DNA of 64,000 nt, taken from a virus. Shown piece by piece: positions 9,569-63,043 of this stretch (the first letter of the stretch is position 1; each line of letters begins with the position of its first letter). The notes beneath the pieces were generated by a model. The model was not told where the DNA came from. It did no database searches and worked only from the letters and a program-made list of their open reading frames with translations. The position numbers and the translations under genes are program-made. The DNA is taken from the IMG/VR virus record IMGVR_UViG_3300037420_001954, positions 9,836-73,835 of that record; one strand, 5' to 3'.

Positions 9569-10273
9569 TCACGCGAGCGCGCAAAGGACCTTGGACGAGG
9601 CCACCGCGACGAGGCCGGCAGGGCCCACGCACACGGCGTTCACGACGGGCGCTGCAATCGAGCCGAGGAGAACGGTCGAGCCGTCGACCTGAGCCTGGCC
9701 GGTGCCCACGAGCGAGCACTTGCCCGATTTATCGAGTGTGAGGCAGGAACCGGAGCCGCCGGCAAACGCCTTGAAGCCGTCGCCGTCGATAATGAAGCCG
9801 TACCCCTTGGAGTTTACGCAGCGAATCGTGTCGTTCTCTGCGTCCATTTGGAACAACATCCCATCGCCGTCTTCGGCATTGCCGGCGCGCGTGTAGATGT
9901 TGACGGAGCCATTCTTCTTGATGAGGACACGGCCTTGGGACTTGCCGTCCTCGCCACCCCCGAACATGCAGGTTTCGCCGTCCGCTAGCGCGCCGTAAAT
10001 GGCATTCGTTCGGTTGTCTTGCGACGCGAACGCGATCTCATAACGACCAATGCGAAGGACGAGCGCGCCCGCCGCCTCTTCCTTGTCCTTATTCGGTTTA
10101 GCCGGGCGGGACGCGAAACCGACCTGTTGCCACCACTCGACCTTGTCGGAATCCGTCTGCCCTTCGCCCGTAACGCTTCCGATCTTCGTTAGGATCTTCT
10201 TCGTCTTGTCCACGAGCTCGGTGCCGAGAACATGGACAATTTGGAACGAGTCAGGCAGGAAGGTGGCGGACAT
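9569..10273 (-). CDS. Baseplate spike (gpV/Mu gp45-like)
   Basis: EWWQQVGFASRP, GALADGETCMF and beta-helix-like repeats; follows the hub gene. Confidence 0.7.
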   Translation of the reverse strand: MSATFLPDSFQIVHVLGTELVDKTKKILTKIGSVTGEGQTDSDKVEWWQQVGFASRPAKPNKDKEEAAGALVLRIGRYEIAFASQDNRTNAIYGALADGETCMFGGGEDGKSQGRVLIKKNGSVNIYTRAGNAEDGDGMLFQMDAENDTIRCVNSKGYGFIIDGDGFKAFAGGSGSCLTLDKSGKCSLVGTGQAQVDGSTVLLGSIAAPVVNAVCVGPAGLVAVASSKVLCALA

Positions 10274-25307: not shown

Positions 25308-26948
25308 TTACGCCGCGAGCGCGGGTTTCGGTGGGGGTTTAGCGGCGGCCGTGGCCTTTGCCTCGGCTTCGATCTTGGCCAAATCCTTGGCGTCGTTCTC
25401 TTTGGTCTCGGCCTCGAGTTCCGCCATGTACGAATCGACGTCCTTGATGCCGAGAATGCCCTTCAGCTTCTCGATAGCCGCCTTCTTCGTGAGCAGCACA
25501 CCGACCGCGGGCAACGTGGCCTGCATGAGGGCGAGCTCCTCGTCGCCAGACATCTTGAAGTACTCGCCCCACGACGCATGAAGCGGCGGGGAGATCCAAG
25601 ACCAGGTCGATTTGCTCGCCCGCGCCTTCACGACGTCGAGGCCTTCTATATCGAGATTTGCCTTGATAGCGATTCGAAGCAACATCCCGATCGCAGGGAT
25701 GAGGTAGTGGTCGGAGAAATCGTCGCGATACGAGTTCACGCGCGCGAGCTGCGGCCGAACGAGGTCGTTCAAGGCCTTGCCGCTGAGTCGGGACTCGTTG
25801 GGGAGGCTCGACGCGTCGATGAAGACGACGCCGAGAGCCTCGGCGAGCTTGCCCTTCATGTCGCGGGCGCGGTCTTCGATGACCTTCAGCGCATCTCCAG
25901 GGAGCGAGAGGTAGTCGACCTTGACCTTCGACGCGTCTTGCACGTCGTACTGCCAAGTAACGCCAGGGCTCTTCTTGCGTGCGGGGTCGGACGAGCCGTA
26001 GCTCGCGCCCACGAACAAGCCGCCGCCCGCGGCCTCGTACTGGTCGAGAAGACCTGGGAAGAAGCCCTTGCGGCCCTTGCCGCCAGCTGGGTCGTAACCC
26101 TTCTTGACGCCGATCTCGATGATCTGCGGGTCGCCGCAGTACATCGCGGCGCGATAGCCCTGGCTCAGAAGGAAGTCGTGCGCGCGGATCTCGTCGAGCT
26201 GATGCTCGTGGAGCGCGTGACCGTCATAGTCGTTGACGATCGAGCACGAGCGCATGTGCGCGTACCAGATGACCGGACAGAATCCGAACGCGTGCGTCGT
26301 CTCGAGGTCGACTACCCAGTTGATGGGCTTGTCTGCGTCGTGCTCTTCGACCTGCGCGGGGTGGTAGATCGTGTCGAAGGTCTCGTCGATCGTGCGACGA
26401 TAGAGCTTGCAGACGACCTTCTTATTGCCGTCGCCATCGCTGATGATGTCGAGGTACGGGTACTTGATCTCGAGGAACTTGATCGACCCGTCGAGATTGA
26501 ACGTCGGCGTGCACCAGCGTGCATAGACCGACTGGATCGTGAGGCGACCGTTTTGCAGGCCGTAGATCGAGCACGCGGACTTGGCGGCCTGCGCCGAGGT
26601 AAAGACCTCGCGAGCCACGGGCTTGAGCCTTGCGTTGTCGATGACGCGCGCAACGGCTTTTTCGAAGTTGTCGGCCTCTTCGCCGTCGGCACCAGCGACC
26701 GTGAACGACGGGAATCGACCTTCGCCTAGGAGCAAGTCCGCGTTCGAGTCGATTGCCATCTTCGCGATGGGGTAAACCACGCACGGCGCGCGCTCCCAGA
26801 GCGGCTTCTTGTCAGAGAAGAAGTTGTCGAGGTGGTCGTACTGCGTCCCGGCTACGAACTGCTCCAACATCTGAAGCGCTTCGGCACGAGGCGTGAGATG
26901 CGCCTTGAGCGCCTTGAGCGCTTCTGGGTAGTTGGGGAGGTCCTTCAT
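25308..26948 (-). CDS. Portal protein
   Basis: Start re-called at ATG 26948 (546 aa); follows TerL; HAFGFCPVIWY and LSGKAL motifs of SPP1-like portals. Confidence 0.85.
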   Translation of the reverse strand: MKDLPNYPEALKALKAHLTPRAEALQMLEQFVAGTQYDHLDNFFSDKKPLWERAPCVVYPIAKMAIDSNADLLLGEGRFPSFTVAGADGEEADNFEKAVARVIDNARLKPVAREVFTSAQAAKSACSIYGLQNGRLTIQSVYARWCTPTFNLDGSIKFLEIKYPYLDIISDGDGNKKVVCKLYRRTIDETFDTIYHPAQVEEHDADKPINWVVDLETTHAFGFCPVIWYAHMRSCSIVNDYDGHALHEHQLDEIRAHDFLLSQGYRAAMYCGDPQIIEIGVKKGYDPAGGKGRKGFFPGLLDQYEAAGGGLFVGASYGSSDPARKKSPGVTWQYDVQDASKVKVDYLSLPGDALKVIEDRARDMKGKLAEALGVVFIDASSLPNESRLSGKALNDLVRPQLARVNSYRDDFSDHYLIPAIGMLLRIAIKANLDIEGLDVVKARASKSTWSWISPPLHASWGEYFKMSGDEELALMQATLPAVGVLLTKKAAIEKLKGILGIKDVDSYMAELEAETKENDAKDLAKIEAEAKATAAAKPPPKPALAA

Positions 26949-27154: not shown

Positions 27155-29005
27155 TTACGCCGCTCGGGCGTAATAGTTGTCGTGTTCGTTGTCGTGGAGT
27201 TCCACGCGTTCAGCGGCCGTCAGTGTTGGCGACATATCGAGATATCCGCCAAGGTCGGCGCGCATGGCAATCAGCAGCGCGAGTGCGTGGTCTCCGTGAC
27301 CTACGCCGCCAGCGACTTGATACGTGATGCCGCCATTCGGAGTGAGCTTCGACGTGAATCGGAGCAACTCCGTGCGCAAACGTTCGGCCTCGTTTGGCGA
27401 GCCGTCTTTGTTCTTGGGCATCGCCGGTAGTTCGATGCGGCCCTCGACGAAGAGCGTTCGCAGGTGATCGACCGAAGGTGTTTTCGAGTTCGAGCCCGCC
27501 GAGCCGCCCCATTTGTGCGGGATGGGTCGTAGGCCAATCTCTTGAAGCAGCGTCGAGAGTGAAAACTCTTCGTAGCCGTCCCAGTGAAAATCCTCTGCCT
27601 GATAGCGTCGCGCGAGTGCGCTTACTCCACGAACAAGATCGAGCCCTCGAACGCCGTCTTTAGACGACCAGGACTTGATCTCGAATACCTTGAAGTAGGG
27701 TTTGTTTGCTGGGGGCTTATCCTTTTTAGGGATCGGCGCGCCGTTCTCGTCTTCAAGCACGCGAACCCAGCCACCGCCATTGCGCGCAGGGATGATGTAG
27801 CCTGCCTTGTACGAGGAGTCGGGGCCAACGGCCTCGGTCTCGTAGAGGTCCTCTACGTGGACAACTTTCGAGGGGATGACCCACGCGCCCACCATGCACG
27901 CCCAAAAGTCACGGCGTAGTGCAGAGGGGTCTGCAAAGATCGCGGGTCTACCGACGACACAATCGTTGAAATCGCCTGAACGAGCAAAGGCAGCATCGAT
28001 GTCACTTGGAGAGAAAACAACTTCTGCGCCATCGACGAATTGCGCGAGGTAGTCGGTCTGGTACGTGCGATAAGCGGTCCGTCTCGTGTACTCTACGAGT
28101 TTCGACGTCCACTGAATGCCAGGCAGGTCTAGAAACGACTCCGCGCTAGTGCGCAGAACCAGGAGGTCTACGCTCCCCGATTCCGGTTCGATCGATGGTT
28201 TGCCGAAATACTTCTCTACGAGGTCGAAGGCGTGCCCAGTCGGCTGCCACGGCGAGCCCGTGTAGATGCCCACGGCTTTTGGCACCACGCGTGCGACAAC
28301 TGCGTCGCGGAAGTGCTCGACGTTCTTGACGGCACCGCCTTCACCGCTGGCCATGCGCGGGTACTCGTCGACGACGAACCCTGCACAATATACCGAGATG
28401 GCACTGCCGCCGCCCTTATCGAGTGGGATGCACTTGACCTCGATAATGCGGCCGTCGTGCGGTCTGCGGATCTTGAGACCTCGCGAGAACGCGGTATCTA
28501 CCGTGATATCCTCAGGCGGATCGACGAGAAATGGTCGGAGGAGAGGCTTCGTCGTCAGCGGCGTGACGAGGTGCTTGAGGACGGCCTTGCAACCCTCCAT
28601 CTTCAACGCAACGATGAAGATGTTGACGATATCGGAGTCCCTCGTGTGAGAGATGTCCGCCGTCTGGGACATGAAAAACAGCGAGCACGCGCCCCAAAGG
28701 GACTTGCCGATGCGGGTGGCGCTGACGTCGAGAAGCTCTCGCGGGGGCGATGTAAGATCGGGCGCGGGGATGCCGCCGCACATCTTCACCACGTCGGGGT
28801 GGTTCTTGAGATCGCCAACGGGCCGACCCTCAAGGATTCGGCACTTCGCGCGCTGAACCGGCGTGGCCTTGGTCACGCCCCAGAACGCCTCGTTCGTGAA
28901 GAGCGTCTCGAGCGTTAGCGGGAACTTCGTACCCTCGACGCGCGGGTCGGGCTTATTCGGTTTAGGCGCCGGTCGCTGGCTTTTGGCAATTACGGTCGAC
29001 GGCAC
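27155..29005 (-). CDS. terL: Terminase large subunit
   Basis: ATRIGKS (Walker A variant), FVVDE (Walker B), TGSPW, YLAQF, C-terminal GHGDHALAL nuclease motif. Confidence 0.88.
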   Translation of the reverse strand: MPSTVIAKSQRPAPKPNKPDPRVEGTKFPLTLETLFTNEAFWGVTKATPVQRAKCRILEGRPVGDLKNHPDVVKMCGGIPAPDLTSPPRELLDVSATRIGKSLWGACSLFFMSQTADISHTRDSDIVNIFIVALKMEGCKAVLKHLVTPLTTKPLLRPFLVDPPEDITVDTAFSRGLKIRRPHDGRIIEVKCIPLDKGGGSAISVYCAGFVVDEYPRMASGEGGAVKNVEHFRDAVVARVVPKAVGIYTGSPWQPTGHAFDLVEKYFGKPSIEPESGSVDLLVLRTSAESFLDLPGIQWTSKLVEYTRRTAYRTYQTDYLAQFVDGAEVVFSPSDIDAAFARSGDFNDCVVGRPAIFADPSALRRDFWACMVGAWVIPSKVVHVEDLYETEAVGPDSSYKAGYIIPARNGGGWVRVLEDENGAPIPKKDKPPANKPYFKVFEIKSWSSKDGVRGLDLVRGVSALARRYQAEDFHWDGYEEFSLSTLLQEIGLRPIPHKWGGSAGSNSKTPSVDHLRTLFVEGRIELPAMPKNKDGSPNEAERLRTELLRFTSKLTPNGGITYQVAGGVGHGDHALALLIAMRADLGGYLDMSPTLTAAERVELHDNEHDNYYARAA

Positions 29006-29039: not shown

Positions 29040-29699
29040 CTAGTCTTCGGCGACGGGCTCGGCTACGACGTCAATGATTTGCTGCTGGGCGATCTTCGCG
29101 ATGATGGCGTAGGGGTCGACCGGCGGGGCGTTCGTTTGCGCACCAAGTTTGTTCGCGAGCTCGTACGCGGTCAGGCAGGCTTGCCGAAAGCGATCATCGA
29201 ACTTCGAGGCCGTGATGCCGTATTCGATCTTTTTCTTGATGTCGGTCGCTTCCGCCGCCTGGGCATGGAAGAACCGACTGAGCGAGAGCAGGTGCGCGGC
29301 CGAGCCGAGGATTGCGGAGGGCACGGGACCCATCACGCCACCGCACGCGGCTGCGAACTCGTCGCGACCGAACTTCAGCCACTCGTCGCAGGCCTTCCAG
29401 TACGCGTGGTACTCGTGGTCGTCGGCGAGCTTGACCATGCCGACGCCCGCGAGCGCCGCGCGCTTGGCCGCTTTCGCCAGGCCGCCTTTCGCGCCGAGCG
29501 CCTTGGCCGTGGCCTTGTCCGCGACGGTGCCGTCGGGGCGTCTTGCAAGCGGTGCCGGCAGGGCCGCCGGGTTGACCGGTAGGGCGTCAGGCTGCTCGTC
29601 AGGCGGCAGGGTCTCGACGCAGAGCAAGTTGTTCGACCTTGCGCCGTGCGAGGTTCGGAGTCCCATGGGTCTGTGCGTGTGGGTCAAAAAGCCCGTCAA
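29040..29699 (-). CDS. Candidate terminase small subunit
   Basis: Positional call only (directly upstream of terL); helical; start uncertain. Confidence 0.45.
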   Translation of the reverse strand: MTGFLTHTHRPMGLRTSHGARSNNLLCVETLPPDEQPDALPVNPAALPAPLARRPDGTVADKATAKALGAKGGLAKAAKRAALAGVGMVKLADDHEYHAYWKACDEWLKFGRDEFAAACGGVMGPVPSAILGSAAHLLSLSRFFHAQAAEATDIKKKIEYGITASKFDDRFRQACLTAYELANKLGAQTNAPPVDPYAIIAKIAQQQIIDVVAEPVAED

Positions 29700-30725: not shown

Positions 30726-30781
30726 AACTATCCCGACTGTAATTATCGAGGGCCACGCCAATAATTACAGTCGGGATAGTT
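30726..30781. repeat. Perfect 21-bp inverted repeat with 14-nt spacer
   Basis: AACTATCCCGACTGTAATTAT (30726-30746) and ATAATTACAGTCGGGATAGTT (30761-30781). Confidence 0.95.
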
Positions 30782-30801: not shown

Positions 30802-31635
30802 CTAGGTAGACGCTGGCGGGAGGTTCGAGGGCGTCCTGCGCACGACACCTTGCGGCAGCTCTCCGCGTTTAGCTTGACCCGTCGCCAAATCGAATTTGCC
30901 CGCCTCGATGGCGTGGAGGATGCGCTGGACCGAATCGAGGTTCCATTTGCTCGACCCGCGCGGCGTAAGCAGACCCGAGGCGTTCAAGCGCTCCACCGTG
31001 CGGCGCTGCGAGAGCTTGTCCTTGAAAATGGCCTCGTGCACGGCCAAGACGACCTCTGGCGCCACGATGTCCTCGACGCGGCGCTGGCCGAGGTACTTGA
31101 CCGGCTCGCGACCTGCCGCGCGCTCGGCGGTGATGCGCCTTTTCACGTGGCTCAGGGCGTCTTTCGTGCGCTCACAGGTCATCTCGCGGTTGAACTCGTT
31201 GATCGCCGCGAGCATGGTGCGCATCAGCCTGCCCGACGGCGTGGAGACGTCGAAGGACTCCTTCACGGTCGAGAGCAAAAGCCCGCCGCGGTTAGGGTCG
31301 ACGAGCTCGAGGAGATCGGTCACTGAGCGCGACACGCGCGAAAAGTCGTAGGTGATGACCACGACCTCGTAGCCCTGCACCTCGAGTTCGGCCCGACGGT
31401 CGAGCAGGGCGGCCATCTGAGGGCGCGCGGCCGGCGGCAACGACCCCGACAGCCCCTCGTCGCGGAAAACGCGGTCTACGGCCAATCCTGTGCGCTCGGC
31501 GAGGAACCGGCACTGGGCCTCCTGCGAGTCGAGCGAGACGCCTTCCTCTGCCTGCTGGCCGGTCGATACGCGGGTGTACACCAAGGCCACGCGCGGGCGG
31601 TTGGCAGGGGGCGGGACTGGGGTTTTACGAGCCAT
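30802..31635 (-). CDS. Serine recombinase (resolvase-type catalytic domain plus short C-terminal DNA-binding domain)
   Basis: YTRVSTGQQ (catalytic Ser), DEGLSG, ARPQM, FSRVSRS, TPSGRLM; start re-called at ATG 31635. Confidence 0.92.
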   Translation of the reverse strand: MARKTPVPPPANRPRVALVYTRVSTGQQAEEGVSLDSQEAQCRFLAERTGLAVDRVFRDEGLSGSLPPAARPQMAALLDRRAELEVQGYEVVVITYDFSRVSRSVTDLLELVDPNRGGLLLSTVKESFDVSTPSGRLMRTMLAAINEFNREMTCERTKDALSHVKRRITAERAAGREPVKYLGQRRVEDIVAPEVVLAVHEAIFKDKLSQRRTVERLNASGLLTPRGSSKWNLDSVQRILHAIEAGKFDLATGQAKRGELPQGVVRRTPSNLPPAST

Positions 31636-31797
31636 CTGGAGGCACAATGGCATCTGCCGGTCGACAGGTCAAGGCCTCGACCTGAAGCCAGGTCAGTTAC
31701 AGCGTGCCTGTACTCGGATCTTTTTAGCCTCTGGGGCAATTTTCGGGGGGCCTCTCTCCACCCCGCGCGCGCGACCCCCCGCACCGGCCTCGAGCTC

Positions 31798-32038
31798 GGC
31801 ACGGACCGTGCAATGAGACGGAATCACGACGCGATGGCACGGACAATGATCGTGCCAACGGCCGAGCGACCGGCCTAACGAACGTCTGACAGGTCAGCCC
31901 TATCTACATCCCGCGCGAGCGTCGCCTCGATGGCACGGACAATGATCGTGCCAAACTCGCACGCGATACTCTCAGGCGTCTCCTGGCGGCGCGCTTATCT
32001 ACTCTTCGCGCGTGCGCTCACTAGGCACGGTACGTGCA
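31798..32038. repeat. Four GCACG...CGTGC dyads, including a perfect 27-bp direct repeat
   Basis: GGCACGGACCGTGCA 31798-31812; CGATGGCACGGACAATGATCGTGCCAA at 31832-31858 and 31928-31954; GGCACGGTACGTGCA 32024-32038. Confidence 0.85.
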
Positions 32039-32228: not shown

Positions 32229-32475
32229 GACCGGCCGACCTGGCGAAGCCAGCGAAACTACGTGACCGGCCGACCTGGCATCGACCGTGCTTAGGCCCTA
32301 GTCCACGATGCCCACCGCGAACCTCTACACGGCTACCCCGGCCCTCTCTGACGTCCGCACGGCCGCGGCGAACCGCGTGCTCGCGGCGATCGAAGCGCTC
32401 CGCGCCTCGAAAAAGACCGCGTCGAAGTGAAAAGCGACCGGCCTAGTCGATTCTGACTTGACCGGCCGACCTGGC
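32229..32475. repeat. Three identical 16-mers GACCGGCCGACCTGGC
   Basis: At 32229-32244, 32264-32279 and 32460-32475. Confidence 0.85.
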
Positions 32476-32514
32476 GGAACCAAGATACCCGAACCGAACG
32501 AACGGAGCACGAAC

Positions 32515-33319: not shown

Positions 33320-33374
33320 TTAGTTAGCGGCCCTTGGCCGCTAGCGAGCCACCGCGCCTTCACTAATAACTATA

Positions 33375-33430
33375 TATAGCCCGTAACGGCCGCGCCTCGA
33401 GAGGGGTTTGCGGCCTGGGGCACTGTAACC
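33375..33430 (+). promoter_or_regulatory. Start-associated hairpin H1 ending CTGTAACC-ATG
   Basis: TATAG/CTGTA, CCC/GGG and GGCCGC/GCGGCC pairings; apical CCTC-GAGA-GGGG. Confidence 0.65.
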
Positions 33431-34036
33431 ATGCCCACTACCAACGATACCCGTGCGTCCCTTGCCCTCATACTCGCCGCGGCGACTGACCTCGATTCGG
33501 TGGACTTCTTTCTGTCGGATTCGGATCGGCCGCTAACGCTAATCAACGAGGCGGGATCGTTGTCCGATACTTCGGCCTTTTTCCTCGCCGGTTTCGAGTT
33601 TGGCCCATCGTGGATTATCCACGTGGACGCGTACCGAGGCGCTGGTTTTGAGCCTGCGTATGAGGCTTGGGTGGATGCGTTGCCCGAGATCGATGCGGAG
33701 GACTTGCCCGAGGCGTATACCGATCCGCGCGACGAGGAAAACCGCACTTTCGATGATATCGCCCGCGAGCGAATGCACACCGCAAAGCCTTGCCCGCAAT
33801 ACCATGAACGGGAGGCTTGGGAATCGTACCAGGCAGAGCGAAAGGCGCTAGCGAAACGCTTGCTCGAGGAGTGCGTGGAAGCCGCGCGAGCGAATTGTGA
33901 GGACTGGCCTGAAGTGGCCGAGGGCTATCGCGAGGACAGCAACGGCCGGGTGAAAGACCTTGGCCACTACGAAAACTTCTATGAGGCCGACTTGGCCGAG
34001 ATCGAAGTGCGCCCGAAAGCCAAAAAGGAGGGATGA
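33431..34036 (+). CDS. Acidic hypothetical early protein
   Basis: 201 aa, Asp/Glu-rich. Confidence 0.8.
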   Translation: MPTTNDTRASLALILAAATDLDSVDFFLSDSDRPLTLINEAGSLSDTSAFFLAGFEFGPSWIIHVDAYRGAGFEPAYEAWVDALPEIDAEDLPEAYTDPRDEENRTFDDIARERMHTAKPCPQYHEREAWESYQAERKALAKRLLEECVEAARANCEDWPEVAEGYREDSNGRVKDLGHYENFYEADLAEIEVRPKAKKEG

Positions 34037-34063
34037 ACAACGACTAGCCACTAAACCAAAAAC

Positions 34064-34122
34064 GGTTACACCCAGCGCGCCTTGGCCTTTATCGGTCGAT
34101 GCGCGCTTAGGGTGCTGTAACC
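34064..34122 (+). promoter_or_regulatory. Start-associated hairpin H2 ending CTGTAACC-ATG
   Basis: GGTTAC/GTAACC, ACCC/GGGT and AGCGCGC/GCGCGCT pairings. Confidence 0.7.
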
Positions 34123-34851
34123 ATGGACATCAAGTGCGTAGTGTGTGGGGAGCCTTGGGATGCGTACGGCGTGAATCACGGCGATATGCTGCCTTGGGAG
34201 GCCAAGTTATTCAAAGCTGGTGCGGGTTGTCCGTCGTGTGAAGGCGTACCCAATGGGTATGAGCCGGCGACGATGGATGACATCGAGAACGGAGACGAGG
34301 ACCCGATCGAGCGCATCCACGCTCGCCTTGATCATGAATCTGGCAACGCGCCTAAGTGGAAGCGTCCCGAGGACCCGGTCTTGTGGGAGTGCGCCGGATG
34401 CGGCGTGCAAGCTATCAAAGACATCGATACTGGAGACTTGGCTTACCGAGTCCCGTACAAGTCGAAGGCACGTAGCTGGTACAGCAGCCATCCGTTTTCG
34501 TGCAACGAGCCGGATGAGGAGCCGGCGCACGTTTTCGACGATGAAACGGCCGTGTGCGAGTTTTGCCTCTCGCACTGCGATCATTGCGGCGAAGCCATGT
34601 GCACGTACGTGGAAGGCTTGGACGGGTTCTACCTGCAGAACCATGACGTGACGTTGTGCGGTGAAGATTGCCTGTGCGCATGGGAGGATGAAGAAGCCCA
34701 AGAGCTTTGGCGTACAGGTTTCACCGACGCGGAGCGACTAGAAGCCATTCGCGATGGCCTATACGACGTCGAATACTACGATTGGAAAGACCTCTTGGCC
34801 CAAGTGCGCGGGCGTTACTTCCGCGGCTGTGCAAGTGAGCTAATCGGCTAA
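34123..34851 (+). CDS. Acidic, Cys-rich (multiple CxxC) early protein
   Basis: CVVCGEPWD, CPSC, CAGC, CEFCLSHCDHC; 242 aa. Confidence 0.8.
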   Translation: MDIKCVVCGEPWDAYGVNHGDMLPWEAKLFKAGAGCPSCEGVPNGYEPATMDDIENGDEDPIERIHARLDHESGNAPKWKRPEDPVLWECAGCGVQAIKDIDTGDLAYRVPYKSKARSWYSSHPFSCNEPDEEPAHVFDDETAVCEFCLSHCDHCGEAMCTYVEGLDGFYLQNHDVTLCGEDCLCAWEDEEAQELWRTGFTDAERLEAIRDGLYDVEYYDWKDLLAQVRGRYFRGCASELIG

Positions 34852-34873
34852 AGGCAAAGGCGGCAAACTACAA

Positions 34874-34934
34874 TTACAGCCCCACAAGAGCTCGGTTTGG
34901 CCATGCGTCGAACCGGGCTAGGGGCGCTGTAACC
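34874..34934 (+). promoter_or_regulatory. Start-associated hairpin H3 ending CTGTAACC-ATG
   Basis: TTACAGC/GCTGTAA, CCC/GGG and GCTCGGTT/AACCGGGC pairings. Confidence 0.7.
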
Positions 34935-35378
34935 ATGCAAAAACTGACCAACCGAGAAGTGCCTTGTGACTGGCGCGTTATCCGAGTGAATTGGACTCGT
35001 GAATGCGGCGAGGCGTTTACTAAGGAGCGCCAGATCAAAGAGTTAGGTATCTACTACCTAGTGGACGTGAACCTTCATGTTCATATCTGCTCTTTTACGC
35101 CGGTCTATGAAGCTTGGCCTATGTGCGCCTACGTCGTTTTCGAAAGCGACGACGCCGCAGACAGAGACGAGGGGGAAACGGAATTGGAATTGCTCAATTC
35201 AGAGGAGGCCTGCTCGTACTTTGGTACGGAGATCGGCCTCGCGCCTGGCTCTAGCAGGCCCTTGTCCGATTACATGCTTGCGGATGAGCAAGAGCCTGAG
35301 GAGTCAGACGAGGACTACCGACGCCGCGTGGCGGATCAGGCTCGCGAATACTTTGCAGGCAACCCCTGCGAATTCTAG
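34935..35378 (+). CDS. Acidic hypothetical early protein
   Basis: 147 aa with an E/D-rich C-terminal half. Confidence 0.8.
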   Translation: MQKLTNREVPCDWRVIRVNWTRECGEAFTKERQIKELGIYYLVDVNLHVHICSFTPVYEAWPMCAYVVFESDDAADRDEGETELELLNSEEACSYFGTEIGLAPGSSRPLSDYMLADEQEPEESDEDYRRRVADQAREYFAGNPCEF

Positions 35379-35385
35379 GAGCGAC

Positions 35386-35565
35386 GTGAAAACCACCTAC
35401 CGATCATTTGGCCGCGGGGTCGCGGTCCGTTGGGATAACGCCAAACAGCAATACGAGGTCTTGGTCCGCGGCTCGAAGGTGTACCGGACCGCGGAGAAGC
35501 GTAACGCATACGACTATGCCGAATCGCTGCTAGGCGGGTCTCACGATAACGATGGAGGCGAGTAA
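35386..35565 (+). CDS. Hypothetical early protein
   Basis: GTG start after AGGAG; 59 aa. Confidence 0.55.
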   Translation: MKTTYRSFGRGVAVRWDNAKQQYEVLVRGSKVYRTAEKRNAYDYAESLLGGSHDNDGGE

Positions 35566-35759
35566 TGGTCGAGGTCTTTCAGCACCCACAAGACTACCAA
35601 CTAGAGCCCTACGAGGACGGCACGCCCCGCGAACCGGGTTGGTATTACTGGTACTTGGAGCCAGGGTGTTTGCCGGATACCGAACCGCTCGGCCCTTTCG
35701 ATTCGGAGGAAGAGGCCTTGGCTAATGCAGAAGCTGAAGCGGACGATCACTACCCGTAG
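35565..35759 (+). CDS. Acidic hypothetical protein
   Basis: 64 aa; GWYYW...PLGPFDSEEEA. Confidence 0.7.
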   Translation: MVEVFQHPQDYQLEPYEDGTPREPGWYYWYLEPGCLPDTEPLGPFDSEEEALANAEAEADDHYP

Positions 35760-35816
35760 TGGCCAATTAGCCCGCGTGTGCCCTAACCGGCGCCGCGGGC
35801 TTGGCCGGCTGTAACC
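35757..35816 (+). promoter_or_regulatory. Start-associated hairpin H4 ending CTGTAACC-ATG
   Basis: GGCCAA/TTGGCC and AGCCCGCG/CGCGGGCT pairings. Confidence 0.7.
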
Positions 35817-36395
35817 ATGACCATTTTACGCCAAGGGTTTGGGGGATACGTTTCCGCGGGCGACTGCCTTAGCGCCGAGCACGAGGGTTTCACGATCGTC
35901 GCCACGCTGCACGCCGACGATGACCAAGACCCGCCGTGGGAGCGCGAGGACGGCCACGGGCCCGTGTACACGACGAAGCACCCTAAAGCGGGCTGGCGTC
36001 GGCTGACCTACGAGGCCGATCCCACCTACTACTACGATTACGAAGGCGCCTTGGCCTTGGCCATGCGCGACCATTGGGGGCCGCGAGGCGGGGATAGGCC
36101 GGGGCTCTCCCGTGAGGACAACGCCAAGCTGGCGGTAGAAGAGGATTACGAGGCCTTGCGCGCGTGGTGCGAGGACGAATGGCGCTACTACGGCGTGGCC
36201 GTGACCGTGTCCAAGGCCGGCGTCCAATTGACGGGCGAATACGATCACGCGGTTTGGGGGATCGAGGGCAATTACCCCGGCGGCGATAACTCTTACTTCC
36301 CGGAAGTAGCGAATCAGCTCGCCGAAGAGGCTTTGGACGCGGCGAAAGAGACCCTGAAAACGTTGTGCGAGTGCGAAGGAGTCGACCATGTCTGA
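35817..36395 (+). CDS. Acidic phage early protein
   Basis: 192 aa; PPWEREDGHGPV...LRAWCEDEWRYYGV...VWGIE. Confidence 0.8.
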   Translation: MTILRQGFGGYVSAGDCLSAEHEGFTIVATLHADDDQDPPWEREDGHGPVYTTKHPKAGWRRLTYEADPTYYYDYEGALALAMRDHWGPRGGDRPGLSREDNAKLAVEEDYEALRAWCEDEWRYYGVAVTVSKAGVQLTGEYDHAVWGIEGNYPGGDNSYFPEVANQLAEEALDAAKETLKTLCECEGVDHV

Positions 36396-36888
36396 TAGGA
36401 AACTTGCGAGCTACTTCACGACGGTCGAGCGCGTCACGCCGAATACCAGGCTGCAGGTCTGGTGCTTGACCGACGCCGCGCCGCAATGGCTCCGTGATGC
36501 CGTGTACGCGGCCCACTACGACGGTAAGGACCTCCCGAACGACTGGATCTACTCCGAGGTCCGCGACGTGTGCCTTGCCATCGACGATGAGCAATTCGAC
36601 GCCAATGAGGACTACCGCCAAGACCACGGCCAGATTCACGAGTACGCGGACGCGGCCGTCGATATCTACACGCGCGGCTTGTACCAGTGGCAAGCGGACA
36701 TGTGCCAAACGGACACCTACGCGTACGCCGAGGAGCGCTTGGCCGATATGGGCAGTGACGACGCGAAGGGTGAGAAGCGCGTGGCCATGCTCCAATACTG
36801 CGCGATCGAGTACATCGCGGAAACCGTCGTGAACGCTTGGGCGGAATCGCTCGACGCGGACGACGACCAAGAAGAAAACGACGAGTGA
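36388..36888 (+). CDS. Ocr-like DNA-mimic anti-restriction protein
   Basis: HGQIHEYADAAVDIYTRGLY resembles T7 gp0.3 [20 protein letters not shown] (compared from memory); highly acidic with an acidic tail. Confidence 0.65.
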   Translation: MSDRKLASYFTTVERVTPNTRLQVWCLTDAAPQWLRDAVYAAHYDGKDLPNDWIYSEVRDVCLAIDDEQFDANEDYRQDHGQIHEYADAAVDIYTRGLYQWQADMCQTDTYAYAEERLADMGSDDAKGEKRVAMLQYCAIEYIAETVVNAWAESLDADDDQEENDE

Positions 36889-38045: not shown

Positions 38046-38233
38046 AAACGTGGGAAGAAACGGTGGCGGCGATGCCGCTCGACGAGGCCAAGATCCAGAC
38101 CGCAATCGCCGCCTACAAGGCCATGTGCGGGAGTCTCGACAATGACGTCCATATCGCTTGGACAGATGCCGCCGAGGCTTTGAACGAGCGCGAGAAGATC
38201 GAGCTGAATGCGCGTTTGGTGGCTTTGCCGTGA
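38042..38233 (+). CDS. Hypothetical protein
   Basis: 63 aa, ATGA coupling. Confidence 0.65.
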   Translation: MKTWEETVAAMPLDEAKIQTAIAAYKAMCGSLDNDVHIAWTDAAEALNEREKIELNARLVALP

Positions 38234-38973
38234 GCGCTCCGGTCGAACAACTCATCCGAAACTTCGGCCGTAGGCCCCGTGCACTGGACTTGTTCTGTTG
38301 CGCGGGTGGGGCGTCGCGGGGCTTGGCCGACGCCGGCTTCGAGGTGCACGGTATCGATATCGAGGACCAGCCCGAGTACCCCTACCCGACGCGTTTCACG
38401 CGGGGTTCGGCCTTGGCCGTCGACGTCGAGTACTTGCAGACGTTCGATCTGATCTGGGCATCGCCCCCTTGCCAGAAATTCACCGCGTACAAGCGACGGC
38501 CGGGCCATGTGCTCCCCAGGCTCAATTTCATTCCAGCCACACGAGAGCTCCTCAAAAAGGCAGGCGCGCCTTACATCATCGAGAACGTGACCGGCGCACG
38601 AGCCGAGCTATCGCCCGACGCGGTGACGCTTTGCGGGAGTATGTTTGGCCTCGACGTACGACGCCACCGGTTGTTCGAGTGCTCTTGGCCGATCCACAAG
38701 TCCGAGCGCCCCAAGTGCCGGCACGCGCTCCAAAAGCCGGGCCGATTTCCAGGCGCCACGAACCGCGCGCCGAACAGCCGTGCCACGGTCGAGGTGGGCG
38801 TTTGGCGGATCCCGCTCGACGTCCAGCGGAAGGCCATGGGTATCGATTGGATGAGCCTGGAGAAGCTTTCGCAGGCGATCCCTCCCGCGTACTCGGAGTG
38901 GCTCGGCAAGAGCGCCTTGGCCTATATCCAGCGAACAAGTACCGAGCAACAGGTTGCTGGCCGAGTCACATAA
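38230..38973 (+). CDS. Short DNA (cytosine-5)-methyltransferase
   Basis: LDLFCCAGG (motif I), ASPPCQ (catalytic PC), IIENV (motif VI), RRHRLF; start GTG 38230. Confidence 0.88.
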   Translation: MSAPVEQLIRNFGRRPRALDLFCCAGGASRGLADAGFEVHGIDIEDQPEYPYPTRFTRGSALAVDVEYLQTFDLIWASPPCQKFTAYKRRPGHVLPRLNFIPATRELLKKAGAPYIIENVTGARAELSPDAVTLCGSMFGLDVRRHRLFECSWPIHKSERPKCRHALQKPGRFPGATNRAPNSRATVEVGVWRIPLDVQRKAMGIDWMSLEKLSQAIPPAYSEWLGKSALAYIQRTSTEQQVAGRVT

Positions 38974-45972: not shown

Positions 45973-46047
45973 GTTCGTATATCCGCCGTATCGAGAACGA
46001 GTGCCAGGCGCCAAGCACGACTCGAAGACACGGCGGATATACGAGAC
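45973..46047. promoter_or_regulatory. Divergent pair of GCA-N16-CGGATATAC promoter-like motifs
   Basis: One copy on each strand, each ending 4-5 nt before a start codon (45972 and 46048). Confidence 0.7.
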
Positions 46048-49550: not shown

Positions 49551-49759
49551 TGGCAGTATCTCACGAACGCATTCGAGAACTAGTGCTCGGCGGCACGCCT
49601 TCGGACGAAGAGATCATCGACATGGCGCACGAGCTTCGGGAACTCCGGCGTGTTTATCGGGCCGCCCGTAAACACTACGACCAAGGCTATGAGTGCAGCG
49701 AACATCTATCGGCAATTATAGAGATGGTCGAAGACTTCACCCTGCCGGTGGCGACGTGA
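49550..49759 (+). CDS. Hypothetical protein
   Basis: TAATG coupling; 69 aa. Confidence 0.6.
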   Translation: MAVSHERIRELVLGGTPSDEEIIDMAHELRELRRVYRAARKHYDQGYECSEHLSAIIEMVEDFTLPVAT

Positions 49760-51138
49760 CGGCCACGTGGGGCGAGCACGAGATCGTCCGCGGCGACGTG
49801 CTCGAGGTACTCCGCACGTTGCCGGACGACTCGTTCGATGCGGTGCTTTCTGATCCCCCCTACGGCCTGAAGTTCATGGCCAAGGCATGGGACTACGACG
49901 TGCCGAGTGTCGAGGTCTGGCGAGAGTGCCTTCGCGTGCTCAAGCCCGGCGGCCTCCTGCTCTCTTTCGGAGGCTCGCGCACGTATCACCGCATCGCTAC
50001 CGCGATCGAGGACGCTGGATTCGAACTACGCGATCAGCTTTTGTGGCTTTACGCAAAAGGTTTTCCAAAAAGTTTCAACATCTCCAAGGCGCTCGACAAG
50101 TCTGCCGGTGCCGAGCGCAAGGTCATCGGCAAGCGCAAGCTCACGGGCAATGCGGCCGTCTCGACCAAAGACAAGGGCGGCACCTACGGTGTTCAAGTCG
50201 GCTCGGCTCCAGCCAAGGAAGTCGACGTCACGGCCCCGGCCACGCCAGAAGCTATTCAGTGGCACGGGTATGGGACGGCCCTCAAGCCCGCGTTCGAGCC
50301 GATCTGTCTCGCTCGCAAACCGCTCGAGGGAACCATCATCGAGAACGTGCGCAAGTGGGGCACTGGCGGCCTCGCGATCGGTGCGTGCCGCATCGGCGAC
50401 GAAGGCGGTACCAAGAAGCGGCCAGCGAAAGAAGGTACGACCGATAGCAAATGCGCGTACTCGGACGGCCTTAACGGCGGCGGTCCGGAACCCATCGACG
50501 AAGGCCGATGGCCAGCGAACGTGCTCTTCGACGAGGGCGCGGCCGAGTATCTCGACGAGGTCGTAGGCAACCGACCGTCACGCAAGTCGGTCACTCGCAA
50601 CGGCGGCGGCAACGCAGGCGGCGCGGTGTTCGATAAGCGTGTCCCGGGCCAAGCCAAGCCAGACTCGGGGCGCAACGAAAACGGCGGCCCGTCGCGGTTC
50701 TTTTTCTGCGCCAAGGTCTCGACCAAAGAGAGGGAGTTCGGGTGTGAAGAGCTGGTTCAAAAGAGCGCTGGGGAGGCTACGGGCGGTCGCCGTGAAGGTT
50801 CTGATGGCCTCAATTCTCCTAGGGCAGGAGCCGGCCGGACGTCGGGAGCCCGAAACCATCACCCAACACTCAAGCCAATCGCTCTGAACGAGTACCTGGC
50901 GAAACTCATCAAACCACCCACGGCCGACGCCACGTTGCTAGTGCCTTATTCGGGCGCGGGTAGCGAGATGATCGGGGCGCTACGTGCGGGCTGGCCCAAT
51001 GTCCTCGGCATCGAGCGAGACCTCGACGACGAAGGCCAGGTCGCAGGCTACATCGAAATCGCCGAGGCGCGCATCGCGGCCTGGATGTGGGACGCGTACG
51101 TGTGCGCGGCCGAAGCGAAAGTGAAAGAGGCAGCGTGA
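49756..51138 (+). CDS. DNA amino-methyltransferase (N6-A/N4-C, beta-class order)
   Basis: GDVLEVL, SDPPY, RVLKPGG, HPTLKP, VPYSGAGS. Confidence 0.92.
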   Translation: MTATWGEHEIVRGDVLEVLRTLPDDSFDAVLSDPPYGLKFMAKAWDYDVPSVEVWRECLRVLKPGGLLLSFGGSRTYHRIATAIEDAGFELRDQLLWLYAKGFPKSFNISKALDKSAGAERKVIGKRKLTGNAAVSTKDKGGTYGVQVGSAPAKEVDVTAPATPEAIQWHGYGTALKPAFEPICLARKPLEGTIIENVRKWGTGGLAIGACRIGDEGGTKKRPAKEGTTDSKCAYSDGLNGGGPEPIDEGRWPANVLFDEGAAEYLDEVVGNRPSRKSVTRNGGGNAGGAVFDKRVPGQAKPDSGRNENGGPSRFFFCAKVSTKEREFGCEELVQKSAGEATGGRREGSDGLNSPRAGAGRTSGARNHHPTLKPIALNEYLAKLIKPPTADATLLVPYSGAGSEMIGALRAGWPNVLGIERDLDDEGQVAGYIEIAEARIAAWMWDAYVCAAEAKVKEAA

Positions 51139-62344: not shown

Positions 62345-63043
62345 ATGACGGCAAATGCGGAAACGATCAAAACGAGGAAGTCGGGTAAGGCGGACGTGTT
62401 GCCTCTTACTCGCGACGAACAAGCCAAGGTGAACGCCGCGTGCCTAAAGTACGCGCCCCTCGTGAAGTCGATTGCGACCGAGTACGTGCGGCCTGGGTCG
62501 AGCCTCGATCTCGAGGACCTGATGCAGCTCGGCTACGAGGCGCTGATCAAGGCCGTTCGAGATTGGCGAGAAGACGGCGGCGCCACGTTCGCCACTATCG
62601 CGAACGGCGATATCCGCAACGCGCTTTGCACCGCGGTCGGTGTGAAAAGGGAAAAGCGAGAGAGAGCGCACTTCGTCGCGCTTATGAATGCGGTCGACAT
62701 CGACGAGCGTCTCTCTAAAAAAGTCTTCAAGCGGGACTTCCTCCGCTCCGCTGAATCACTCGATGAGCCCTATGACGATGGTGAGACCTTGCGCGATCTC
62801 ATCGGCACACCTGCGACGCAGGAAGAAGACCTCGCAAACAAGGAATTGCACGAGAAGGTCATCCGCAAGCTGAGCGAGGATGACTTGAGACTGATCCGTC
62901 TCCACGACTCCGGCGCCACGGACGCGGACATGGCGGAGGCCTGCGGCATCGGTCGCTCGACAATGCAGGCGCGCAGAAGTCGAGCGACCAAACGCGCGTA
63001 CGATGTAGTTCAACAAATCGAGCCCCTGGCGCTGGTCGCGTGA
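62345..63043 (+). CDS. Phage sigma-70 family sigma factor
   Basis: Region 2: LVKSIATEY...DLEDLMQLGYEALIKAVRDW....ATFAT; region 4 HTH: TDADMAEACGIGRSTMQARRSRA. Confidence 0.88.
   Translation: MTANAETIKTRKSGKADVLPLTRDEQAKVNAACLKYAPLVKSIATEYVRPGSSLDLEDLMQLGYEALIKAVRDWREDGGATFATIANGDIRNALCTAVGVKREKRERAHFVALMNAVDIDERLSKKVFKRDFLRSAESLDEPYDDGETLRDLIGTPATQEEDLANKELHEKVIRKLSEDDLRLIRLHDSGATDADMAEACGIGRSTMQARRSRATKRAYDVVQQIEPLALVA

Follow-up and report, generated by a model that had tools for sequence, protein, structure and literature searches.

In the 64,000-nucleotide window studied here, which covers positions 9,836 to 73,835 of the 81,895 bp record IMGVR_UViG_3300037420_001954 of an uncultured virus, the acidic gene cluster at window positions 33,431 to 36,888 likely forms the head of an arm of early host-takeover genes, and the last acidic gene of the cluster encodes a distant Ocr-superfamily protein. 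The six acidic proteins measure 201, 242, 147, 64, 192 and 166 amino acids (aa) in gene order. The last of them, the 166-aa Ocr-like protein (36388-36888, plus strand; net charge -25), is very probably homologous to the DNA mimic Ocr (gp0.3) of phage T7, as judged from profile comparisons and a structural model. From this homology we lean towards a function in which it would block a host enzyme from a type I restriction-modification (R-M) or bacteriophage exclusion (BREX) system as a DNA mimic.

Fold, family and function of the Ocr-like protein

The resemblance to T7 Ocr noted in the first-pass annotation holds as a real similarity by fold, family profile and synteny, but it is a remote one that escapes PF08684 and direct PHROG detection. 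An Ocr fold is indeed predicted. The AlphaFold2 model of the 166-aa protein (predicted local distance difference test, pLDDT, 92) finds its best match among 48,161 solved chains in T7 Ocr (1S7Z), with a middling Z of 7.5 and a root-mean-square deviation (rmsd) of 3.7 Å over 103 of 106 residues. The alignment covers model residues 51-161, and the runner-up chain reaches a Z of 5.0. In BFVD, a Streptomyces phage protein annotated as OCR-like matches the model as well (template modelling score, TM, 0.64 by target). A search of the ESM Atlas gave no Ocr match with a poor Atlas model (pLDDT 0.55), and the homodimer prediction (score 0.31 against a mark of 0.42) carries no weight either way.

Several results weigh against the reading proposed here. 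A Z of 7.5 lies inside the range (under 8) in which a common helical arrangement can account for a match, the rmsd of 3.7 Å comes with only 15% identity, and Foldseek on the PDB, including its re-alignment, did not recover Ocr. PF08684 is matched by none of 132 family members (the 166-aa protein and 131 relatives), and the 166-aa protein itself does not match phrog_2568. The column equivalent to Ocr F54, a residue required for dimerisation (PMC9122126) that aligns with Y99 of the Ocr-like protein, is variable in the family (F27%, L24%, Y18%, A13%), and the 50-residue N-terminal extension falls at the Ocr dimer interface, so that shape and partner could differ. As to the company of the gene, none of the 201-, 242-, 147-, 64- and 192-aa proteins has a sequence match to a known anti-defence protein in Pfam, NCBIfam or the PDB sequences, and of the 91 loci retrieved by way of the 242-aa family, many of them short, only 3 have an Ocr-like gene.

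Given the caution due at a Z below 8 and the Foldseek miss, independent support for Ocr was sought. Direct searches were silent: phmmer and hmmsearch of PDB sequences as well as Pfam and NCBIfam searches returned no Ocr match, and the PF08684 and phrog_2568 models, run over the genome, missed the protein. The family as a whole is more informative. The 166-aa protein has 32 close homologues, and a profile search extends the family to 1,923 clusters at 50% identity. Seven of the 132 members match phrog_2568 (best E 8.7e-6), the family to which T7 Ocr itself belongs. A hidden Markov model (HMM) built from 28 Ocr sequences scores above 10 bits for 12 of the 132 members and for none of the reversed, shuffled or acidic controls. 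When the two families are compared by hhalign, a collinear global alignment results (E 7e-4, probability 27%), whereas the acidic 242-aa control family gives an E of 0.67. Both families carry a common motif, H-E-x-A-D-x-x-V-x-x-Y (H-E/M at its start when T7 Ocr is included), which aligns with Ocr 37-88. Ocr A58, which we take to be a dimer-interface residue, aligns with A103, in a column that is 72% A.

The charge pattern and the genomic position agree with this picture. Residues 51-166 (116 aa) hold 32 acidic and 7 basic residues, near-identical to the 34 and 6 of Ocr. Like T7 Ocr, the protein has a helical fold across nearly the whole Ocr chain and an acidic C-terminal tail, its gene probably lies early, and its gene unit has a long hairpin upstream. 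The median net charge of the family is -20, and 25 alignment columns are at least half acidic. In addition, a homologue encoded by the marine T7-like phage MedDCM-OCT-S28-C3 (BAQ94013; 36% identical; Foldseek E 7e-7, TM 0.72) is the third open reading frame (ORF) after the terminase and lies upstream of the RNA polymerase gene, which corresponds to the gene-0.3 position of T7. We would place the family in the Ocr superfamily as a new branch, outside PF08684 as Pfam defines it.

Apart from identity, rmsd and its position below Pfam detection, the protein differs from T7 Ocr by an extra N-terminal domain. Residues 1-50 form a neutral beta-hairpin and helix that is absent from Ocr, present in 132 of 132 aligned members and home to seven of the ten most conserved positions (F10, P32, W34, H43, P50, D52 and W53). 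Because the N-termini of Ocr meet at its dimer interface (PMC4872106), this domain could make the mimic longer, change its shape or give it another target. The carrier differs too: it is no T7-like podophage but a myovirus of 82 kb that encodes its own sigma factor and a serine recombinase. Under the DNA-mimic reading, the protein would dimerise via the helix equivalent to Ocr 52-60, and its rows of carboxylates would fill the groove in which a host type I R-M or BREX methyltransferase binds DNA, and so protect the unmodified phage genome.

A true Ocr homologue might also have been directed by its N-terminal domain to another host machine that binds DNA, be it RNA polymerase, a protein of the nucleoid or a different defence sensor. 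The conservation of that domain fits such a change of target, as does the family's charge density, with a median aspartate plus glutamate (D+E) content of 20% compared to 29% in Ocr, and T7 Ocr itself also binds RNA polymerase (PMC7064336). Yet, Ocr homologues still work with only ~15 acidic positions (PMC3439906), fewer than the largely acidic columns counted here, and the homologue located where a T7-like phage would have gene 0.3 suggests an unchanged role; we consider retargeting improbable. Still less probable is convergence, in which the Ocr likeness would merely reflect a small acidic helical bundle and the cluster would consist of ordinary early accessory genes that are acidic but have no counter-defence role in common. 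The middling Z and the missing Pfam match are compatible with convergence, as is the abundance of small acidic ORFs in the genome and in further early arms, e.g., those of the compared loci L029 and L104 (loci used for comparison are given by L numbers). However, fold, profile, motif and synteny independently indicate Ocr, and composition-matched controls fail.

Remote relatives of Ocr have already been recognised in actinophages, though not the present family. "Ocr-like antirestriction" proteins have been annotated by homology in Streptomyces phages of cluster BD such as Paedore, in Rhodococcus phage ChewyVIII (gp86) and in phage Urza (gp75) (PMC13313380); the single test found in the literature, of Urza gp75, was negative on the system tried (PMC12646305). 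They share with our protein a remote Ocr fold outside the T7 group (TM 0.64 for the match to the Paedore model), but identity is 16%, their length is 131 aa compared to ~155 aa here, and tblastn gave no match to those actinophages. A literature search found no paper on the Ocr-like family. Two 38% GC viral contigs (L010 and L011, 8001-8246) show weak and uncertain Ocr-like matches (E 2e-4) beside a long charged protein. An origin in plasmid leading regions was also considered and is unsupported, as no plasmid homologue of the Ocr-like or the 192-aa protein was found.

The probable early arm and its hairpins

The acidic cluster is real. All six ORFs are present at the coordinates and lengths given by the first-pass annotation, independent gene prediction on further assemblies of this phage yields the same ORFs, and their description as Asp/Glu-rich is borne out by net charges of -24, -31, -18, -16 and -21 for the five proteins that precede the Ocr-like one. 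Pooled D+E amounts to 21% compared to 13.5% genome-wide. The cluster holds five of the six most acidic among 80 proteins of at least 100 aa (permutation P = 5e-5), and P = 2.4e-4 is obtained when the same permutation is restricted to non-structural genes. The excess is weaker with all small genes counted (P 0.009 to 0.07), because many small non-structural genes of the phage are acidic. The acidic genes are not strictly consecutive as had been claimed: a basic 59-aa gene (35386-35565, plus strand, net +2), overlooked before, separates the 147- and 64-aa genes.

Since a tail sheath and a major head protein are encoded, the virus is a myovirus. It further encodes a DNA polymerase A, a primase-helicase, an RNA ligase, a sigma factor and a serine recombinase. 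The structural genes run leftward from ~29,700, and the first three resemble terS, terL and the portal gene, an assignment made by motif inspection, position and synteny with locus L147. No Pfam, PHROG or NCBIfam model matched the presumed terminase subunits (27155-29005 and 29040-29666) and portal (25308-26948). By sequence comparison, this presumed packaging module is deeply divergent, with ~50% identity to its L147 counterpart. Beyond the head of the structural genes follow a non-coding stretch, the serine recombinase gene (30802-31653, minus strand) and a block of small plus-strand genes from ~32,300, of which the acidic cluster forms the head. Here and in L146, L147 and L150, the divergent early arm begins at the recombinase, and the layout of portal, terL, terS and recombinase opposite an early arm with an Ocr-like gene is kept in L147. 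The phage is possibly temperate. Relatives were also sought in viral contigs via the portal and 192-aa proteins, and none were found.

The claim that the cluster is early is supported by its position, by synteny and by a homologue of the 192-aa protein, gp99 of phage PAK_P3, which lies in the block gp74-gp112 shown to be early by RNA-seq (PMC4933390). The arm is probably the first to enter the cell, in which case the host RNA polymerase would transcribe it right after entry, as suggested by position, synteny and homologues. The PAK_P3 (Nankokuvirus) block resembles the present one in its small hypothetical early genes, its intergenic gaps and the 192-aa family, but no Ocr-like, 201-aa or 242-aa homologue was found in those phages.

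Four genes or gene pairs of the cluster are preceded by an intergenic plus-strand hairpin. The first (33373-33427; z -2.2) ends in CTGTAACC immediately 5' of the ATG of the 201-aa gene, and the others precede the 242-aa gene (34064-34122; z -5.9), the 147-aa gene (34874-34932; z -3.8) and the pair of 192-aa and Ocr-like genes (35757-35811; z -3.6). The sequence TGTAACCATG occurs five times in 82 kb, each time at a plus-strand start codon; four of the five copies are in the cluster, and every one of these closes a 55-60-nt hairpin, against a genome median z of -0.2. The fifth start is at window coordinate 64153 (genome 73988), which falls outside the window, before an 87-aa gene remote from the cluster. 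The element consists of a GC-rich stem with a GGGCT-T(A/G)-GGG 3' arm and a variable inner stem, and is conserved as a structure: it is found 5' of early genes, the Ocr-like gene included, in L147, L148, L149, L150, L001 and L025. In these relatives the hairpin is mostly followed by a Shine-Dalgarno sequence, L150 having the same CTGTAACC instead.

We prefer to interpret the hairpins as processing sites of the early transcript, because they are conserved, because the T7 hairpins before genes 0.3, 0.5 and 1 fold similarly in the same folding test, and because the stem length agrees with the ~22 bp stems bound by RNase III (PMC6212723). They would thus serve to process or stabilise the transcript, much as the T7 RNase III sites R0.3, R0.5 and R1 do; common to both are intergenic stems of ~20-25 bp that contain an internal loop or bulge and lie immediately upstream of early genes. 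They differ from the T7 sites in sequence and in that the stem ends at the start codon without a Shine-Dalgarno sequence, and cleavage is presumed here. The hairpins may alternatively serve as structure-dependent promoters. Rfam gave no match for them. A reading of CTGTAACC-ATG as the -10 element of a leaderless transcript was dropped, as it leaves no spacing to the start codon and no sigma-70 site was found there; it is further weakened by relatives in which the hairpin is retained but a Shine-Dalgarno sequence stands at its end. Upstream of the 201-aa gene, the 13-mer TTCACTAATAACT (33359-33371) is identical to positions 895-907 of T7 (L115), in the leader before gene 0.3, which is probably a coincidence.

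Other candidate signals were seen nearby. Between the recombinase and the first early genes, three copies of GACCGGCCGACCTGGC (at 32229-32286 and 32460-32482) and a 32-nt direct repeat (31827-31858 and 31923-31954) are candidates for early promoters or operators. A perfect 21-bp inverted repeat (30726-30781) immediately beyond the stop codon of the recombinase holds in its arms CTGTAATT, a near-match to the CTGTAACC of the early hairpins. The phage sigma factor is encoded at 62345-63043, and GGCGGATATACGA, at 45987, 46032 and 62329, lies immediately 5' of three start codons, that of the sigma factor included.

Acidic neighbours and methyltransferases

The five acidic neighbours are all encoded on the plus strand. 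The 201-aa protein (33431-34036) belongs to no known family; its homologues, 33-80% identical, are in related early arms, some of which have them adjoining the 242-aa and Ocr-like genes. The 242-aa protein (34123-34851) is rich in cysteine (16 Cys, five CxxC) and is probably a multi-zinc-finger protein. It has ~100 homologues, all acidic, and its confident model (pLDDT 95) finds no fold match in PDB, BFVD or Atlas (best Z 3.3); weak matches to an endonuclease PHROG (E 1e-3) and a Cas12g zinc finger (E 0.13) were dismissed as noise from the Cys pattern. The 147-aa protein (34935-35378), likewise of no known family, has one remote homologue in the early arm of L029, while the very acidic 64-aa protein (35565-35759) has a homologue in L149, close to the Ocr-like gene, and one in L024, close to the 242-aa gene. 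The few homologues of the 201-, 147- and 64-aa proteins are all acidic and located in other small-ORF arms. The 192-aa protein (35817-36395) belongs to PHROG family 11104 (E 7e-25), which has no assigned function. Its homologues, found in 52 phage records, include gp99 of PAK_P3 and PAK_P5, gp08 of Xylella phage Sano, which lies 2 kb from cos, and others in small-ORF arms. The structure of the 192-aa protein matches unnamed viral clusters only. The 192-aa gene overlaps the Ocr-like gene by 8 nt, and the two are probably translationally coupled.

These neighbours form no obligate module; they are a gene pool that related phages share and reshuffle. Loci L018, L148 and L025/L026 have the 201-, 242- and Ocr-like genes side by side, and L026 has the 192-aa gene inserted; L148 was chosen as likely to hold both genes, so that these cases are not an unbiased co-occurrence count. 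Most Ocr-like loci carry other neighbours, often acidic. An acidic family with an S/N-L-D-(V/M)-W-G motif, not seen in the present cluster, repeatedly flanks the Ocr-like gene in relatives (L026 5046-5462; L147 10525-10875; L148 2694-2954; L016 9620-10090).

A counter-defence role of the acidic neighbours is plausible, and nothing but charge, position and company suggests it. They are probably conserved early host-interaction proteins of unrelated folds, some of which may be counter-defence proteins. A strong version of the island proposed in the first-pass annotation would make the whole block a dedicated anti-defence island, with most of the five neighbours as new inhibitors, possibly DNA mimics, of distinct defences; charge clustering beyond chance, the acidity kept in every neighbour family, the adjoining genes in the loci just named and the common hairpin element are in line with it, but we rate it the least likely explanation, as no neighbour is linked by sequence to a known inhibitor, structure searches, which covered the 242- and 192-aa proteins, gave no fold match to a known anti-defence protein, and co-occurrence is largely within related phages and rare in the loci fetched through the 242-aa family.

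The same annotation counted two DNA methyltransferases as a further layer of the island. Both enzymes are present, but they lie outside the cluster and are ordinary orphan enzymes. A C5-cytosine methyltransferase of 247 aa (38230-38973, plus strand) with intact motifs I, IV and VI is located in the same arm, 1.3 kb downstream, and an N4/N6 methyltransferase of 460 aa (49756-51138, plus strand) with a DPPY motif lies 13 kb away among middle genes. Orphan methyltransferases are frequent in phages and are thus no marker of this cluster; they are a separate, later and ordinary layer. Across the whole genome, several palindromes are avoided (observed/expected: TTAA 8/69, AGATCT 2/35, ATGCAT 0/10, CTGCAG 6/26, AGTACT 8/27), which, at the level of sequence, shows general restriction pressure and points to host type II sites.

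Implications for Ocr-type counter-defence

To our knowledge, Ocr is known almost only from T7-like coliphages. Among DNA mimics it is the model case, and where it came from is still an open question (PMC3439906). A wider and more speculative possibility, which we regard as doubtful, is that the ~1,900 clusters found in phages of several lineages from soil, fresh water and the sea constitute a large Ocr branch in which the N-terminal domain would lengthen or retarget the mimic, set in a hairpin-punctuated cassette together with unrelated acidic inhibitors of other defences, the zinc-finger protein of unmatched fold among them.

If the Ocr assignment is true, thousands of remote relatives have been missed by standard annotation, and the range of Ocr-type counter-defence would be wider accordingly. 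With its natural variants, the targets of Ocr and the trigger of PARIS could be studied, and the family would supply an outgroup for the evolution of Ocr. The acidic neighbours offer a short ranked list for anti-defence screens, in which the 192-aa family has members in cultured phages (PAK_P3 gp99 and Sano gp08).

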